21,023 nt of DNA from a virus (IMGVR_UViG_2778261176_000007:1-21023), one strand, 5' to 3'; counted from the stretch's first letter, positions 6,178-10,213 are shown. Notes: a model not told the origin generated them from the sequence alone. Translations and numbers: made by a program.

Positions 6178-6194
6178 ATTACCTTTCGGGTAAT
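6178..6194. promoter_or_regulatory. 17-bp palindromic operator-like site ATTACC-TTTCG-GGTAAT (copy 1 of 5)
   Basis: Perfect 6-bp inverted arms with a 5-bp spacer. Located in the divergent region between the tailspike gene and the small Ant-C-like gene. Confidence 0.55.
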
Positions 6195-6269: not shown

Positions 6270-6527
6270 ATGCAGCAGTATCACTATCCACTGGAAGACG
6301 GATTTACCGAAAGGATTCACACGCCGGGAGGCGTCAGATCACTAGTGGAGGGATCGCACTTGATGAAATTACTCCGGGATCTCGATAAGGATGGATTTAA
6401 TGTCGATGGCCCACTTGCCGAACTGACTGCACTGATTAACTACGTCACCAGCTCACAGATGTCTATGCGGGATCTGCAAACACATCTCGACTATTGTGCC
6501 GAACAATTACGAAAACAAACCAGATAA
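6270..6527 (+). CDS. Small stand-alone protein homologous to the C-terminal domain of the two Bro-N antirepressors (candidate SOS-controlled antirepressor-like factor)
   Basis: 85 aa from the internal ATG (the track ORF starts at 6147 but would cover the operator palindrome and LexA box). GGAG SD 9 nt upstream. Alignable by eye to the Ant C-termini (LAELTALINYVTSSQMSMRDLQTHLDY versus AAELTTMFCYIVGVSKCLRDIQTHAEY). Confidence 0.5.
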   Translation: MQQYHYPLEDGFTERIHTPGGVRSLVEGSHLMKLLRDLDKDGFNVDGPLAELTALINYVTSSQMSMRDLQTHLDYCAEQLRKQTR

Positions 6528-6556: not shown

Positions 6557-6575
6557 ATTTACCTTTGCGGTAAAT
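6557..6575. promoter_or_regulatory. Palindromic operator-like site ATTTACC-TTTGC-GGTAAAT (copy 2 of 5), at the start of the ant1 leader
   Basis: Perfect 7-bp arms. About 45 nt upstream of the conserved structured leader element. Confidence 0.55.
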
Positions 6576-6600
6576 TTACATCGCACTCCTCTTGTGCCAT

Positions 6601-6685
6601 AGTAATCGGGCACTGGCAAAATCCAGTGCCGGGATTGGCGTCCCGGATTACTAAAAGGCGCATTCACCGCGCAAGCGGTTTTTTT
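6601..6685 (+). ncRNA. Structured leader RNA element upstream of ant1 (c4-like antisense-RNA candidate): closing stem, two hairpins, and a hairpin plus U7 terminator
   Basis: Stem AGTAATC (6601-6607) pairs with GATTACT (6646-6652). Hairpin A is GGCACTGG-caaaat-CCAGTGCC (6609-6630). Hairpin B is CCGGGA-ttggcg-TCCCGG (6629-6646). Terminator-like ACCGC-gcaa-GCGGT followed by T7 (6666-6685). The stems are conserved in the inverted ant2 copy while the loops differ (compensatory pattern). Confidence 0.4.
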
Positions 6686-6842
6686 ATGCGTATAGCACGG
6701 CCACATTCGTATTATGGTGGGCTGTGTGGGGGCACCGAAAGGTGCGCCGGGTCCTTTTAGCCGGTTACGCCAACCCTGCACAGCTCACCACCAACCGATT
6801 GGCGTCGGTAGTGGTGATTAACCAGACTAAAAGGTAACCACT

Positions 6843-7538
6843 ATGACAGCTACAAAAAGCACGTCCATTTTTTCTTTCGAATCCCAAGCCGATATACGAG
6901 TAATCGTCATTAATGGTGAGCCATGGTTTATCGCTTCAGATGTTTGTCGGGCTATAGGCATAGCAAACCATCGAGATGCTGTTCGAAAACTTGATGATGA
7001 TGAGAAGGGCGTCGCTTCAACCGACACCCCTGGCGGTGAGCAAGAATCGATCATCATCTCCGAGTCAGGCCTCTACACACTGATCCTCCGCTGCCGCGAC
7101 GCAGTGACACCAGGCACTATCCCCTACCGCTTTCGTAAATGGGTTACAGGTGAGGTTCTTCCTCAGATCCGCCGCACCGGAAGCTACATTAAAAACTCGC
7201 TCCCGCAGGAAGAACGCATAAAGATGGTTGCCGACCAGGTAGCCAACGCCACGGCGTCAGCAGTAATGCAGGCGATGAAGATAGAGAACAAAACCTACAG
7301 CGCCCCGCTGAAGCCCGGCTACCGCAGTTTGATTCACTCGCCGTCTGGTGTTCTCGGCCTGACGGAGAACTCACTGCTGATGAATCTGCTGAACCAGTTA
7401 CAGGAAGACGGGCACGACGTATCGGGCGCGGCGGCGGAACTGACCACCATGTTCTGCTACATCGTCGGTGTGAGTAAATGCCTGCGTGATATCCAGACCC
7501 ACGCGGAATACATCAACGACAAGGCAGGGGTCTTCTGA
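6843..7538 (+). CDS. Antirepressor-like protein with Bro-N N-terminal domain (ant1)
   Basis: 231 aa. N-terminus IFSFESQADIRVIVINGEPWFIASDVCRAIGI...ESGLYTLILR is a Bro-N-type motif. AAAGGT SD before the ATG. The C-terminal half is nearly identical (about 95 percent nucleotide identity) to the inverted paralog at 8652-9344. Confidence 0.85.
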   Translation: MTATKSTSIFSFESQADIRVIVINGEPWFIASDVCRAIGIANHRDAVRKLDDDEKGVASTDTPGGEQESIIISESGLYTLILRCRDAVTPGTIPYRFRKWVTGEVLPQIRRTGSYIKNSLPQEERIKMVADQVANATASAVMQAMKIENKTYSAPLKPGYRSLIHSPSGVLGLTENSLLMNLLNQLQEDGHDVSGAAAELTTMFCYIVGVSKCLRDIQTHAEYINDKAGVF

Positions 7539-7547
7539 CAGAACGGC

Positions 7548-7570
7548 GGCACAGGGATGTGCCTTTAAAT
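7548..7570 (+). terminator. Putative terminator of ant1 (hairpin GGCACA-ggga-TGTGCC followed by TTTAAAT)
   Basis: 6-bp stem about 10 nt after the ant1 stop. The T-tract is interrupted, so this is weakly supported. Confidence 0.35.
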
Positions 7571-7604
7571 AATTCTGTACAGATTGCAGGTGAATAGCGT
7601 ACTA

Positions 7605-7619
7605 TTACCCCAAAGGTAA
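7605..7619. promoter_or_regulatory. Palindromic operator-like site TTACC-CCAAA-GGTAA (copy 3 of 5), upstream of the AT-rich two-gene cassette
   Basis: Perfect 5-bp arms with a 5-bp spacer, about 120 nt upstream of the ATG at 7737. Confidence 0.5.
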
Positions 7620-7736
7620 GAAAGTTGATTTGTAACATTTTAGTTTGTAGTTACCGTGATGGTTTTGCTGCAGAAAGTTAACTAGTCAAAATCACACCGT
7701 ATGTAAGTCACGTCTGTTCCCGTATGGGAGGATGAT

Positions 7737-7955
7737 ATGTTTAAATTTGATATGCAACTCAACCAAAACTATGCCTCTTTTTACCATCCAGAAACTGGTA
7801 AAGCTGTTTTCGTTGACTCTTTCGATAATGAAGAATTTGATATCAGAATTGGGACCCTACGCCAAAGTAAGCATGTTGCTACTGTACGTGCATCCAATGA
7901 TGATGAATTAAATCAAAAAATAAGTGAGGCGACCTCCCGTTATCTATGTCTATAA
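7737..7955 (+). CDS. Hypothetical protein, 72 aa (first gene of AT-rich moron cassette)
   Basis: Strong SD GGGAGG 7 nt upstream of the ATG. AT-rich codon usage unlike the flanking genes. Its stop overlaps the start of the next ORF (ATG at 7946, TAA at 7953-7955). No recognisable domain. Confidence 0.55.
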   Translation: MFKFDMQLNQNYASFYHPETGKAVFVDSFDNEEFDIRIGTLRQSKHVATVRASNDDELNQKISEATSRYLCL

Positions 7956-8323
7956 CAGAACAACAACTCATTGATCTTGAGGATGAGATTAACGAGATCT
8001 TGCAAGAAGATGCGGCAAGAATTCACTTTTCATTTCACGCAGCATATGAACGCCTGAACGACGAGAGGAACAAACCGCCAATTACTCTTGCTGAGCTTGA
8101 AGATGTGTTTAAATCGTTTATATCTGCACATCTGCAGACTGTTTTGGATTTTGCTGAAGGTACAACTTTCACCATAAAGTGCAACAAAAGCGCCCTTCAT
8201 TTTCCTTGCGCCATTGTACACGAAAGAGAGTTTGGGAAAACGTGGGTTATCCAAAACGTCATTACAGCCATGAGGAAAGTGGGATTCAAGTCTAAAGATT
8301 CTATTATCCTCGAAGTTAATTAA
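7946..8323 (+). CDS. Hypothetical protein, 125 aa (second gene of AT-rich moron cassette)
   Basis: Translationally coupled to the 72-aa ORF. Acidic N-terminal half. Followed immediately by an intrinsic terminator. No recognisable domain. Confidence 0.6.
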   Translation: MSITEQQLIDLEDEINEILQEDAARIHFSFHAAYERLNDERNKPPITLAELEDVFKSFISAHLQTVLDFAEGTTFTIKCNKSALHFPCAIVHEREFGKTWVIQNVITAMRKVGFKSKDSIILEVN

Positions 8324-8344
8324 GCCCGCACTGAGGGCTTTTTT
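8323..8344 (+). terminator. Rho-independent terminator of the two-gene cassette
   Basis: Stem AGCCC / GGGCT with loop GCACTGA, followed by TTTTTT (8339-8344). Directly after the stop codon at 8321-8323. Confidence 0.7.
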
Positions 8345-8416
8345 ATGGACGAAACAAAAGTCAGTGCTACACTCATTGACGCCACATTGAGGTGGCTTAT
8401 AGATGGAAATTTCACA

Positions 8417-8578
8417 ATGAAAAAAGCATTTGCTGCACTGTTCGTTTTGTTGTCTCTGGTAGCTTCAACTCAGGCCTTTGCCGGTCGTTGTCAGCACGAC
8501 AGCGATACTGCCGCTGACGGCTCCCGCTGCGGTGGGCGTTCTGCGGACTCCCGCCCGGGCGGCGGTGGCATTCGTTAA
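8417..8578 (+). CDS. Small secreted Cys/Gly-rich peptide (about 53 aa), hypothetical
   Basis: Signal peptide MKKAFAALFVLLSLVASTQAFA then GRCQHDSDTAADGSRCGGRSADSRPGGGGIR. Weak SD. The upstream in-frame ATG at 8345 lies inside the preceding terminator T-tract, so 8417 is the more plausible start. Confidence 0.3.
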   Translation: MKKAFAALFVLLSLVASTQAFAGRCQHDSDTAADGSRCGGRSADSRPGGGGIR

Positions 8579-8600
8579 AAACAAGGCCGCGAAAGCGGCC
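8577..8600 (-). terminator. Rho-independent terminator of ant2 (minus strand)
   Basis: Hairpin GGCCGC-gaaa-GCGGCC (8585-8600) followed on the minus strand by TTGTTTTT. About 50 nt downstream of the ant2 stop. Confidence 0.5.
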
Positions 8601-8651
8601 TGTGACATGTCACGCTAGTTTCGTTTTGCACGTCCCTGTGCCGACGTTCTG

Positions 8652-9344
8652 TCAGAAGAACCCTGCCTTGTCGTTGATGTATTCCGCGTGCGTCTGGATA
8701 TCACGCAGGCATTTGCTCACACCGACGATGTAGCAGAACATGGTGGTCAGCTCCGCCGCCGCACCCGATACGTCGTGCCCGTCTTCCTGTAACTGGTTCA
8801 GCAGATTCATCAGCAGTGAGTTCTCCGTCAGGCCGAGAACACCAGACGGAGAATGAATCAGGCTGCGGTAGCCGGGCTTCAGCGGGGAGCTGTAGGTTTT
8901 GTTCTCTATCTTCATTGCCTGCATCACTGCTGATGCTGTGGCGTTGGCTACCTGGTCGGCAACCATCTTTATGCGTTCTTCCTGAGGGAGCGAGTTTTTA
9001 ATGTAACTTCCGGTGCGGCGGATCTGAGGAAGAACCTCACCTGTAACCCATTCAAGAAATCTGAATGCTCTCGTTCCCTCAGTCATTGCCTCTTTGCAAC
9101 GCAGAATAAGGATGTAGAGACCTGATTCTGAAACGATGGATAGTTCTTGTATTCCACCAGGGGTCTGTATTGAATACAGCCCCTTTTTGTTCCAGCCTTT
9201 TTTATCAAGTTTTCTCGCTTGTGTAACATCAATATTCAAAGCATTGCACACATCTTTGGTGACAAACCAAGGTTCTCCGTCAATCATGAACATACGGATC
9301 TGGCAGGATGACTCAAAGGAAAAGATGGAAGGTTTGGTATTCAT
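8652..9344 (-). CDS. Antirepressor-like protein with Bro-N N-terminal domain (ant2), inverted paralog of ant1
   Basis: 230 aa from the ATG at 9342-9344 (the track ORF starts 15 codons upstream at a TTG). AAAGGTGA SD. The Bro-N domain has diverged from ant1 while the C-terminal 130 aa differ at only 2 residues. Confidence 0.85.
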   Translation of the reverse strand: MNTKPSIFSFESSCQIRMFMIDGEPWFVTKDVCNALNIDVTQARKLDKKGWNKKGLYSIQTPGGIQELSIVSESGLYILILRCKEAMTEGTRAFRFLEWVTGEVLPQIRRTGSYIKNSLPQEERIKMVADQVANATASAVMQAMKIENKTYSSPLKPGYRSLIHSPSGVLGLTENSLLMNLLNQLQEDGHDVSGAAAELTTMFCYIVGVSKCLRDIQTHAEYINDKAGFF

Positions 9345-9498
9345 AGCGATCACCTTTGTAGTTAGGTTAATCACCACCGCTGAGACCAATCAGATGGTGG
9401 TGAACTGTGCAGAGTTGGTCTTACCGGCTACAAAGGAACCCGGCGCACCTTTCGGTGCCCCCACACAGCCCACCATAGAATAGGTGCGCTTTACACAT

Positions 9499-9584
9499 AA
9501 AAAAACCGCTTATGCGGCATATGTGCCTCTGTAGTAATCCGGGAGACCAATCCCGGCACTGGATTTTGCCAGTGCCTGATTACT
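9499..9584 (-). ncRNA. Structured leader RNA element upstream of ant2 (twin of 6601-6685), c4-like antisense-RNA candidate
   Basis: Same closing stem and two hairpins as the ant1 leader, with loop B changed from ttggcg to ttggtc. Terminator-like CCGC-ataa-GCGG followed by U7 on the minus strand (9499-9517). Confidence 0.4.
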
Positions 9585-9611
9585 ATGGCACAAGAGGAGT
9601 GCGTTGTAAAT

Positions 9612-9626
9612 TTACCTCAAAGGTAA
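9612..9626. promoter_or_regulatory. Palindromic operator-like site TTACC-TCAAA-GGTAA (copy 4 of 5), at the start of the ant2 leader
   Basis: Perfect 5-bp arms. Equivalent position to copy 2 in the inverted arm. Lies in the divergent region between ant2 and the 9774 gene. Confidence 0.5.
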
Positions 9627-9773: not shown

Positions 9774-10172
9774 GTGCCATTCCACGGCGTAGAACTTTAT
9801 GTTGTCAATCACAACGGCGAACCGTACACCCCAATGAAACCTATCGTTGAGGGAATGGGGCTAGACTGGAAATCTCAACATAAGAAGATTTCTCAACGCT
9901 TCTCGAAGGGTATGGTGGAAATCACCATACCTTCTGCCGGTGGGGTGCAAGCCATGATTTGTATGGCTTTACGAAAATTGGCAGCTTGGTTGAACAGCAT
10001 CAGCCCTAACAAAGTCCGCCCTGAAATCCGCGATAAGGTAATCCAGTATCAGGAAGAGTGTGATGATGTGCTCTATGAGTACTGGACTAAAGGCCATGTG
10101 GTTAACCCGCGCAAAGCTAAAAAGGTGTTGCCGGGTAAAATCACTACTGAGCAACAGGAGGTATACACTTAA
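9774..10172 (+). CDS. Phage antirepressor-like protein (P22 AR N-terminal-like domain), hypothetical
   Basis: 132 aa. The motif LRKLAAWLNSISPNKVRPEIRDKVIQYQEECDDVLYEYW resembles antirepressor N-terminal domains as I recall them. The first in-frame start is a GTG with no clear SD, so the start is uncertain (an internal ATG lies 20 codons in). Confidence 0.5.
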   Translation: MPFHGVELYVVNHNGEPYTPMKPIVEGMGLDWKSQHKKISQRFSKGMVEITIPSAGGVQAMICMALRKLAAWLNSISPNKVRPEIRDKVIQYQEECDDVLYEYWTKGHVVNPRKAKKVLPGKITTEQQEVYT

Positions 10173-10196: not shown

Positions 10197-10213
10197 ATTA
10201 CCTTTAAGGTAAT
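10197..10213. promoter_or_regulatory. Palindromic operator-like site ATTACC-TTTAA-GGTAAT (copy 5 of 5), immediately upstream of the membrane-anchored moron
   Basis: Perfect 6-bp arms. Ends 20 nt before the ATG at 10233, so it overlaps the expected promoter/RBS region. Confidence 0.55.

Follow-up and report, generated by a model that had tools for sequence, protein, structure and literature searches.

Antirepressors decide whether a prophage stays silent, and the c4 antisense RNA of P1 and P7 is the classic case of immunity specificity encoded in RNA. In both phages c4 is established as a processed, trans-acting repressor (restated in PMC5320573), and the difference in the a element between P1 and P7 is held responsible for their heteroimmunity (PMC6906374; PMC5320573). 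The annotated P1 record, from which we took the site nomenclature (a1, b1, c4, a', b', a2, b2), gives the order operator, promoters, a1, b1, c4 (b' in a loop, a' in a junction), a2, b2 on the icd ribosome-binding site, and ant1/2. Here we describe the viral DNA IMGVR_UViG_2778261176_000007:1-21023, which was analysed over its whole length of 21,023 nucleotides (the window). It holds two inverted leaders, each upstream of a gene for a Bro-N antirepressor-type protein (ant1 and ant2). The region very probably represents two complete c4 antisense modules of the P1/P7 type, each driving one of the two ant genes.

IsrK, a small RNA of the Salmonella prophage Gifsy-1, and c4 are given as unrelated in a 2025 review. 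In Gifsy-1, IsrK activates the translation of anrP in trans, and Hfq binding and trans-activation by IsrK are known for Gifsy-1 only (PMC4825925). A processed RNA of ~80 nt, STnc1160, accumulates from inside the open reading frame (ORF) 'orf45' (PMC4825925), and both IsrK and STnc1160 are highly transcribed in lysogens under every condition tested (PMC7067206). Compensatory mutants G28A/C162U and G31A/C159U were published in the Gifsy-1 paper, which names the P4 CI RNA as the analogue and never mentions P1 c4 (PMC4825925).

Three further systems are close to the one described here. In the APSE phages of Hamiltonella, small RNAs of the c4 and isrK families adjoin a BRO-N gene, and their a'/b' match its upstream region (PMC7313666); the APSE sequence records annotate C4, isrK, a', and b'. 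APSE differs from the window in having one module per phage and a distant DNA polymerase-gene target that was also proposed, with no allele comparison (PMC7313666). The CI RNA of satellite phage P4, with seqA/seqC, follows the same logic, since a processed leader RNA pairs upstream and downstream in its own transcript, but its targets are replication genes, whose transcription it ends prematurely. The P4 CI RNA had no Rfam match within the window at the gathering or the permissive threshold. Acinetobacter baumannii genomes carry many C4 homologues each, which vary mainly in the a'/b' loops and are apparently processed at a GGW motif (PMC5320573); the copies in the window start UAU|GGU. The Acinetobacter copies differ in being dispersed over the genome.

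RNA family membership and architecture of the two modules

The window was scanned with the Rfam covariance models at their gathering thresholds (C4, 45 bits; isrK, 50 bits). Four matches were obtained, two to C4 and two to isrK, and they lie exactly in the regions singled out by the initial annotation of this DNA, which had proposed from the sequence alone a c4-like antisense switch in the leaders of two antirepressor genes. Both leaders belong to the C4 family (RF01695), with 79.2 and 78.6 bits, compared with 68.8 bits for P1, and the alignments extend over the whole model (positions 1-87 of 87). The isrK matches reached 77.9 and 74.7 bits. The c4-a1b1 model (RF03163, described in Rfam as 'a1, b1 targets of C4 antisense RNA'), searched at a permissive threshold, stayed below its gathering score of 46.7 bits in the window, with 45.1 bits at 6597-6649 (E = 1.8e-9) and 38.4 bits at 9588-9536 (E = 1.9e-7); the same element passes as isrK. 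In Gifsy-1 and in two viral contigs (L054 and L075), isrK and c4-a1b1 also match one and the same element. Rfam keeps isrK outside its C4 clan (CL00128).

The c4 fold was taken from the Rfam alignment, and independent minimum-free-energy folds agree with it in both copies. Two hairpins are enclosed by a long terminal helix; b' occupies the loop of the second hairpin, and a' the single-stranded junction that follows. In both modules c4 is followed, on its own strand, by the targets a2 and b2, of which b2 lies on the ribosome-binding site. A second target copy (a1 and b1) precedes c4 in the same transcription unit. The context UAU|GGUGGG at the c4 5' end is conserved in both copies and in P1. 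Promoters and terminators were called by consensus scan. The features of module 1 are as follows.

6575..6603, + strand: module-1 promoter, sigma-70-like, with TTTACA, a 17-nt spacer, CATAGT, and a TG preceding the -10 hexamer
6610..6685, + strand: IsrK-1, the a1/b1 leader RNA (Rfam isrK 77.9 bits; c4-a1b1 45.1 bits)
6710..6795, + strand: c4-1 antisense RNA (Rfam C4 79.2 bits, full-length model alignment)
6794..6809, + strand: a2 hairpin ACCGA-TTGGCG-TCGGT, with a2 TTGGCGT at 6799-6805
6827..6834, + strand: b2 of module 1, CTAAAAGG, overlapping the Shine-Dalgarno AAGG, 8 nt before the ant1 ATG (6843)
6843..7538, + strand: ant1, Bro-N antirepressor-type protein of 231 aa (Pfam Bro-N E = 2.3e-21)

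The position of the promoter agrees with the Rfam isrK 5' end at 6610, and nearly the same promoter is present in copy 2. IsrK-1 consists of hairpin 1 (6610-6629), a hairpin displaying a1 TTGGCGT (6635-6641), b1 CTAAAAGG (6651-6658), and an intrinsic terminator with its stem at 6666-6679 followed by a T run. The mature c4-1 is predicted by homology with P1 at ~6716-6792 (77 nt). It bears b' CCTTTTAG (6753-6760) in the loop of the final hairpin and a' ACGCCAA (6767-6773) in the single-stranded junction, and its minimum-free-energy fold of -48.1 kcal/mol has three helices that agree with Rfam. The module-1 b2 is complementary to the c4-1 loop 6753-6760. The 7-mers that the initial annotation had reported for the ant1 leader, TTGGCGT at 6635-6641 and 6799-6805 and ACGCCAA at 6767-6773 (+ strand), are all in place, and so are the hairpin contexts given for the loops (CCGGGATTGGTCTCCCGG and CTGATTGGTCTCAG). 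Their positions in the P1 element order identify these 7-mers as a sites. Module 2 is inverted.

9610-9582, - strand: module-2 promoter TTTACA, 17-nt spacer, CATAGT (consensus scan); with its palindrome the element spans 9582..9626
9499..9575, - strand: IsrK-2 leader RNA (Rfam isrK 74.7 bits; c4-a1b1 38.4 bits)
9393..9480, - strand: c4-2 antisense RNA (Rfam C4 78.6 bits; fold -43.6 kcal/mol)
9380..9393, - strand: a2 hairpin of module 2, CTGA-TTGGTC-TCAG, with a2 TTGGTCT at 9389-9383
9353..9361, - strand: b2 of module 2, CTACAAAGG, over the ant2 Shine-Dalgarno, with the ATG at 9344-9342
8652..9344, - strand: ant2, Bro-N protein of 230 aa (Pfam Bro-N E = 1.8e-13)

IsrK-2 contains a1 TTGGTCT (9550-9544), b1 CTACAGAGG (9534-9526), which pairs with b' through one G-U wobble, and a terminator stem at 9518-9505 on the - strand. 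The mature c4-2, predicted by homology at ~9474-9396 (79 nt), has b' CCTTTGTAG (9436-9428) in a loop and a' AGACCAA (9421-9415). The 7-mers described for the ant2 leader, TTGGTCT at 9550-9544 and 9389-9383 and AGACCAA at 9421-9415 on the - strand, were thus found where expected. The earlier description of a single set of loops and 7-mer per leader holds for the a sites (a1, a', and a2), but it overlooked a second set, the b sites. The b triplet also differs between the copies, and b2 covers the ant ribosome-binding site in both.

By analogy with P1, processing of c4 and repression of these ant genes would proceed as follows. Transcription would start at the sigma-70-like promoter with its adjacent TTACC-N5-GGTAA operator, and most transcripts would stop at the intrinsic terminator, giving an IsrK-type RNA of ~76 nt with a1 in a hairpin loop and b1 single-stranded. 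Read-through would yield c4, presumably cut out by RNase P at UAU|GGUGGG as an RNA of ~77 nt, as in P1. With b' exposed in a hairpin loop and a' in the single-stranded junction, this RNA would pair with a2 (loop to junction) and b2 (loop to Shine-Dalgarno) and so block ant translation in cis and in trans. The short IsrK RNA has the a and b sequences of the mRNA; it probably acts by titrating c4, which would relieve repression. Each c4 is predicted to favour its own ant mRNA because the a and b alleles differ between the copies. In a lysogen with both modules, silencing would extend to the antirepressors brought in by relatives of the one type or the other.

The mechanism is already known and widespread, from P1/P7 c4 and from IsrK/c4-a1b1. 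Four points are modestly new. One phiV10-like prophage has two modules with different addresses, a Bro-N gene would be controlled directly with no icd in between, and both elements show combinatorial diversity. In addition, the IsrK locus of Gifsy-1 is explicitly recognised as a c4 module, and this link calls for a new reading of the IsrK data. The window shows that the common phiV10/TL-2011b type of E. coli podovirus prophage carries the c4 system in duplicate, with different alleles.

Covariation across homologous leaders

We gathered homologous leaders from viral contigs with a degenerate pattern in which the isrK hairpin stems were fixed and the loop was left free. The pattern returned 118 loci with 129 modules, of which 116 were distinct, and 15 loop sequences; a scan of genome contigs with a 23-nt c4 core gave 6 loci only, too few for use. 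The three-way 7-mer match was present in 112 of 113 distinct complete leaders and across all 15 loop types. When the 7-mer was taken from another loop type as a control, the match occurred in 0 of 1469 cases. From the loop 7-mer it is ~116-125 nt downstream to its reverse complement and ~148-159 nt to its next copy; in an insertion variant these spacings are 162 nt and 195 nt, respectively.

Pair covariation was measured on a MAFFT alignment of 66 leaders, with 500 shuffles and slid partners as controls. The a1:a' helix is 94% paired and shows both-sided change in 6 of 7 pairs, with a covariation score of 0.374 against 0.145 +/- 0.010 in shuffles (0/500 reached it) and at most 0.135 for slid partners. 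The a':a2 helices are 92% and 84% paired, and their overall score of 0.371, against 0.165 when shuffled, was also reached by 0/500 shuffles. The helices at the b sites are 71-75% paired on this alignment and score lower because loop lengths vary and indels break the alignment there. In an alignment-free search for the longest complement, b complementarity was 7-10 nt in most modules; in a few, such as the CCGTTTAG group, b2 was matched poorly or by wobbles only. In IsrK hairpin 1 pairing is complete (100%) and 4 of the 7 pairs covary; the c4 helix P2 covaries as well.

The a2 hairpin with its outer stem is 90% paired and shows both-sided change in 8 of 10 pairs (0/500 shuffles reached its score). 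The outer stem CACCAC/GTGGTG (6786-6821, and 9402-9367 on the - strand) is conserved and covarying. Its 5' arm is the 3' end of the c4 terminal helix, so the unprocessed precursor can adopt two mutually exclusive folds. These may correspond to the two states, 'structure A' and 'structure B', between which the Gifsy-1 RNA was reported to switch.

Specificity of the two copies and allele diversity

The two leaders are nearly identical, promoter included, except at the a and b sites, the IsrK terminator, and the IsrK-c4 spacer. The a alleles, TTGGCGT and TTGGTCT, differ in two central bases, and the b alleles, CUAAAAGG and CUACAAAGG, differ by a one-base insertion or bulge. The compensatory change that had been reported in the hairpin stems amounts, in the a2 hairpin, to one compensated pair (CCGA/TCGG against CTGA/TCAG). 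The comparison with P1/P7, where 2-nt changes in the paired elements set the specificity, agrees with an alignment of P1, P7, and D6, in which 2-nt a changes and 2-nt b changes are repeated in all three copies. The a element is TTGACAG in P1 and TTAGCAG in P7, and the b element is GTTAGTG in P1 and GATTGTG in P7; D6 keeps the P1 a allele and has a different b allele. The a difference in the window is thus of the same magnitude as that between P1 and P7.

Cognate element duplexes are predicted to be ~4-6 kcal/mol per element more stable than non-cognate ones. These energies support, without proving, a preferential self-recognition of each module. The claim that two heterospecific modules sit in one prophage is right as to distinct a and b alleles, and the functional orthogonality of the two copies is what we infer from the sequences and the predicted duplex energies.

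The diversity of alleles is wider in the family as a whole. We found 138 c4 copies on 124 viral contigs, with 21 a' strings, 39 b' loops, and 49 combinations. One ant type occurs with different a/b alleles, and one allele set occurs with different ant types. This decoupling indicates that specificity evolves as a separable code. Twelve contigs carry 2-4 modules, one of them four in tandem. In that contig (L075, 2351-5108, - strand), four isrK-C4-ant units follow each other with a different a'/b' combination in each; the ant ORFs are ~178 aa and their products start MATT or MATI. Other contigs with several modules, among them L054 and L046/L047 (the latter being one contig), include one with three modules at the phiV10-type locus and one with two in tandem that share a' and differ in b'. 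Among 17 co-resident module pairs, none were identical in both elements, 11 differed in both, 5 in b' only, and 1 in a' only.

It is tempting, though still doubtful, to regard the c4/IsrK modules as a two-part RNA 'address code', in which at least 21 a' and at least 39 b' variants are freely assorted into at least 49 combinations, so that 2-4 antirepressor switches could run without cross-talk in one prophage, or several per cell, with IsrK as a built-in c4 sponge. If true, such a code would widen the range of incoming relatives whose antirepressors a lysogen can silence. The IsrK and c4 literatures would merge, and the Gifsy-1 'orf45/STnc1160' would be re-read as a c4 RNA. The allele set is also a natural library of probably orthogonal antisense/target pairs. 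A testable idea is that prophages with several modules may broaden superinfection immunity or insulate parallel induction pathways.

Comparison with P1 and Gifsy-1

The modules share with P1/P7 the RNA family, the element order with a terminator-like hairpin, an antirepressor gene downstream, and a repressor-type operator at the promoter. P1 has between c4 and ant the leader ORF icd, whose translation c4 targets directly, whereas in the window the ant ATG follows directly after b2, which lies on the ant Shine-Dalgarno; some relatives have an ORF of 62-63 aa at the icd position. P1 Ant1 and the Ant1 of the window show no detectable similarity (BLASTP E = 0.12), the latter being a Bro-N protein. 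P1 is a plasmid prophage, whereas the window belongs to an integrated podovirus of the phiV10/epsilon15 type with two modules of different specificity. The immI of the P22 type (arc/mnt/sar) was ruled out as an identity for the locus, as only a truncated P22_AR_N ORF is nearby and no matching RNA family was found.

Gifsy-1 (Rfam isrK, RF01394; L131, 34131-34329) has the same layout of isrK, C4, and the antirepressor-like anrP, with b2 on its Shine-Dalgarno. It differs in that AnrP is unrelated to Ant1 and there is a single module. Its C4 match (69 bits) lies exactly between isrK and anrP, and its a allele, UUGGCGU/ACGCCAA, is that of leader 1. The Gifsy-1 'orf45/STnc1160' region is a full-length C4 RNA. 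With nucleotides numbered from the 5' end of IsrK, the two compensatory mutants (G28A/C162U and G31A/C159U) affect precisely a1 and a'; the a1:a' pairing was thus already demonstrated in this homologue under another name.

Alternative explanations

Several points count against, or limit, the explanation by two c4 switches. The b alleles differ by one bulged base only, and the copy-2 b1 requires a G-U wobble, so that some cross-talk is possible, in which c4-1 pairs with ant2 or c4-2 with ant1. When whole c4 molecules were co-folded with IsrK or the ant 5' untranslated region, the gain was 0 to -1.8 kcal/mol for every combination; the method is uninformative on loop-loop pairing because this is a pseudoknot that it cannot form. 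The finding of 0/17 identical co-resident pairs is not statistically significant (random assortment, P ~0.35), and because of this chance probability we do not claim avoidance of identical specificity as a rule. The modules lack icd, the leader ORF through which P1 couples translational repression to Rho-dependent polarity, so the downstream consequences may differ from those in P1. The authors of the Gifsy-1 work invoke an intramolecular helix and the upstream ORF orf45 in place of a diffusible c4 repressor, and over-expression of the orf45/STnc1160 region left IsrK toxicity unrelieved (PMC4825925).

We hold it rather unlikely that the modules lack functional insulation, with each c4 partly repressing both ant genes and the alleles recording separate acquisition by recombination, insulation not having been selected. 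The nearly identical promoters and operators and the near-identity of the b alleles fit this explanation, as do non-cognate duplexes that are still predicted at -5 to -10 kcal/mol and the nature of the module as a self-contained unit of ~240 nt that recombines freely with different ant genes. The chance probability given above for the co-resident pairs also agrees with it, and some of these pairs differ in one element only. The P1/P7-size difference at two central positions of the a 7-mer argues against it, as does the count of no pair identical in both elements.

Quite unlikely in our judgement is an arrangement centred on IsrK, in which the 7-mer pairing mainly forms an intramolecular helix that locks the read-through mRNA in an inactive state, the short upstream RNA is the activator in trans, and the c4-like segment is no diffusible repressor. 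This follows the Gifsy-1 authors, who describe a helix b-I between IsrK and the 'orf45' region, and it accords with the activation of anrP by IsrK in trans and the failure of constitutive orf45/STnc1160 expression to counter IsrK (PMC4825925). The competition of the a2 outer stem with the c4 terminal helix, which suggests alternative precursor folds, points in the same direction. On the other side, the segment is a full-length, high-scoring C4 member, and its homologue in P1/P7 acts in trans as a repressor after processing. In Gifsy-1 an RNA of ~80 nt was seen that is processed and stable, and the covariation of a2/b2 with a'/b' would be left unexplained. The two models, with IsrK or with c4 at the centre, are largely compatible.

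Drift after a local inverted duplication, leaving coordinated differences without function, has next to no probability: the modules and the ant 3' halves do form inverted repeats (79-96% identity), but six sites change in mutual compensation, both alleles recur unchanged in many unrelated contigs, 15 loop types keep the three-way match, and the family-wide pair statistics lie above all shuffled and slid controls, which contradicts drift and sustains the earlier judgement that drift is very unlikely and RNA pairing is under selection.

Probable operators, antirepressor genes, and prophage context

Two palindromes stand at the module promoters.

6559..6573, + strand: palindrome TTACCTTTGCGGTAA, likely operator, directly upstream of the module-1 -35 hexamer
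9612-9626, - strand: palindrome TTACCTCAAAGGTAA of module 2, beside the module-2 promoter

The pattern TTACC-N5-GGTAA has 5 exact copies in the window against 0.42 expected (6179-6193, 6559-6573, 7605-7619, 9612-9626, and 10198-10212), each directly upstream of a transcription unit. A search of the window for the palindrome with a 6-nt spacer found none; the spacer is 5 nt. The palindrome occurs at a fixed position beside the -35 hexamer in 82 of 115 homologous isrK modules. phiV10 has 14 copies (0.74 expected; for example, L132 32727-32741 and 32775-32789), two of them between the helix-turn-helix (HTH) repressor gene p40 and the divergent p41. The palindrome is probably the operator of the phage's main repressor. 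Its centre is ~44 bp upstream of the IsrK start, so both activation and repression are possible. No repressor gene is present within the window, whose left end holds lysis genes and a TraT-like lipoprotein.

Ant1 and Ant2 are 80% identical overall (BLASTP). The initial annotation had ascribed a different Bro-N domain to each; both are Bro-N, with N-terminal domains ~50% identical and C-terminal halves ~99% identical. An inverted repeat of 558 nt (7005-7562 with 8628-9185, 88% complementary overall), made up of the 3' halves of the two genes, brackets a three-ORF cassette at 7605-8600 with no Pfam matches. Relatives hold other cargo at the cassette position, such as a YafO toxin in TL-2011b. 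Gene conversion is one explanation that this arrangement suggests; another is recombination between ant1 and ant2 that inverted or exchanged the cassette.

An 85-aa ORF (6270-6527, + strand), which has a palindrome and a promoter region of its own, encodes a stand-alone antirepressor C-domain, with 43% identity (E = 2e-16) to the C-terminal domain common to Ant1 and Ant2. Its equivalents are phiV10 p24 and epsilon15 gp19, and its product might act on the Ant proteins as a modulator or a competitor. At 9774-10172 (+ strand), a 132-aa ORF that starts with GTG has a P22_AR_N domain only (E = 5e-44), and in the closest E. coli genome it is annotated as an incomplete pseudogene. With a truncated P22_AR_N ORF here and a full P22-type arc/ant pair at the same position in TL-2011b, the locus is a hot spot that accumulates different antirepressor systems.

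The element is an E. coli prophage of the phiV10/TL-2011b (epsilon15-like) type, with the modules between the tailspike and the virion structural genes. phiV10 has module 1 only, and TL-2011b has module 1 and the P22-type pair. Twin Bro-N genes in this arrangement are also present in the closest complete E. coli genomes, where the RNAs are unannotated; the RefSeq record of E. coli TUM9803 (L130) gives coding sequences only across the twin locus. The phiV10 record (L002/L132) gives the IsrK terminator a generic terminator feature and labels a stretch of the IsrK/c4 leader 'similar to hypothetical protein SF0880'. The leader is present in 294 phage records, including those of Stx-converting phages, SfV, and APSE.

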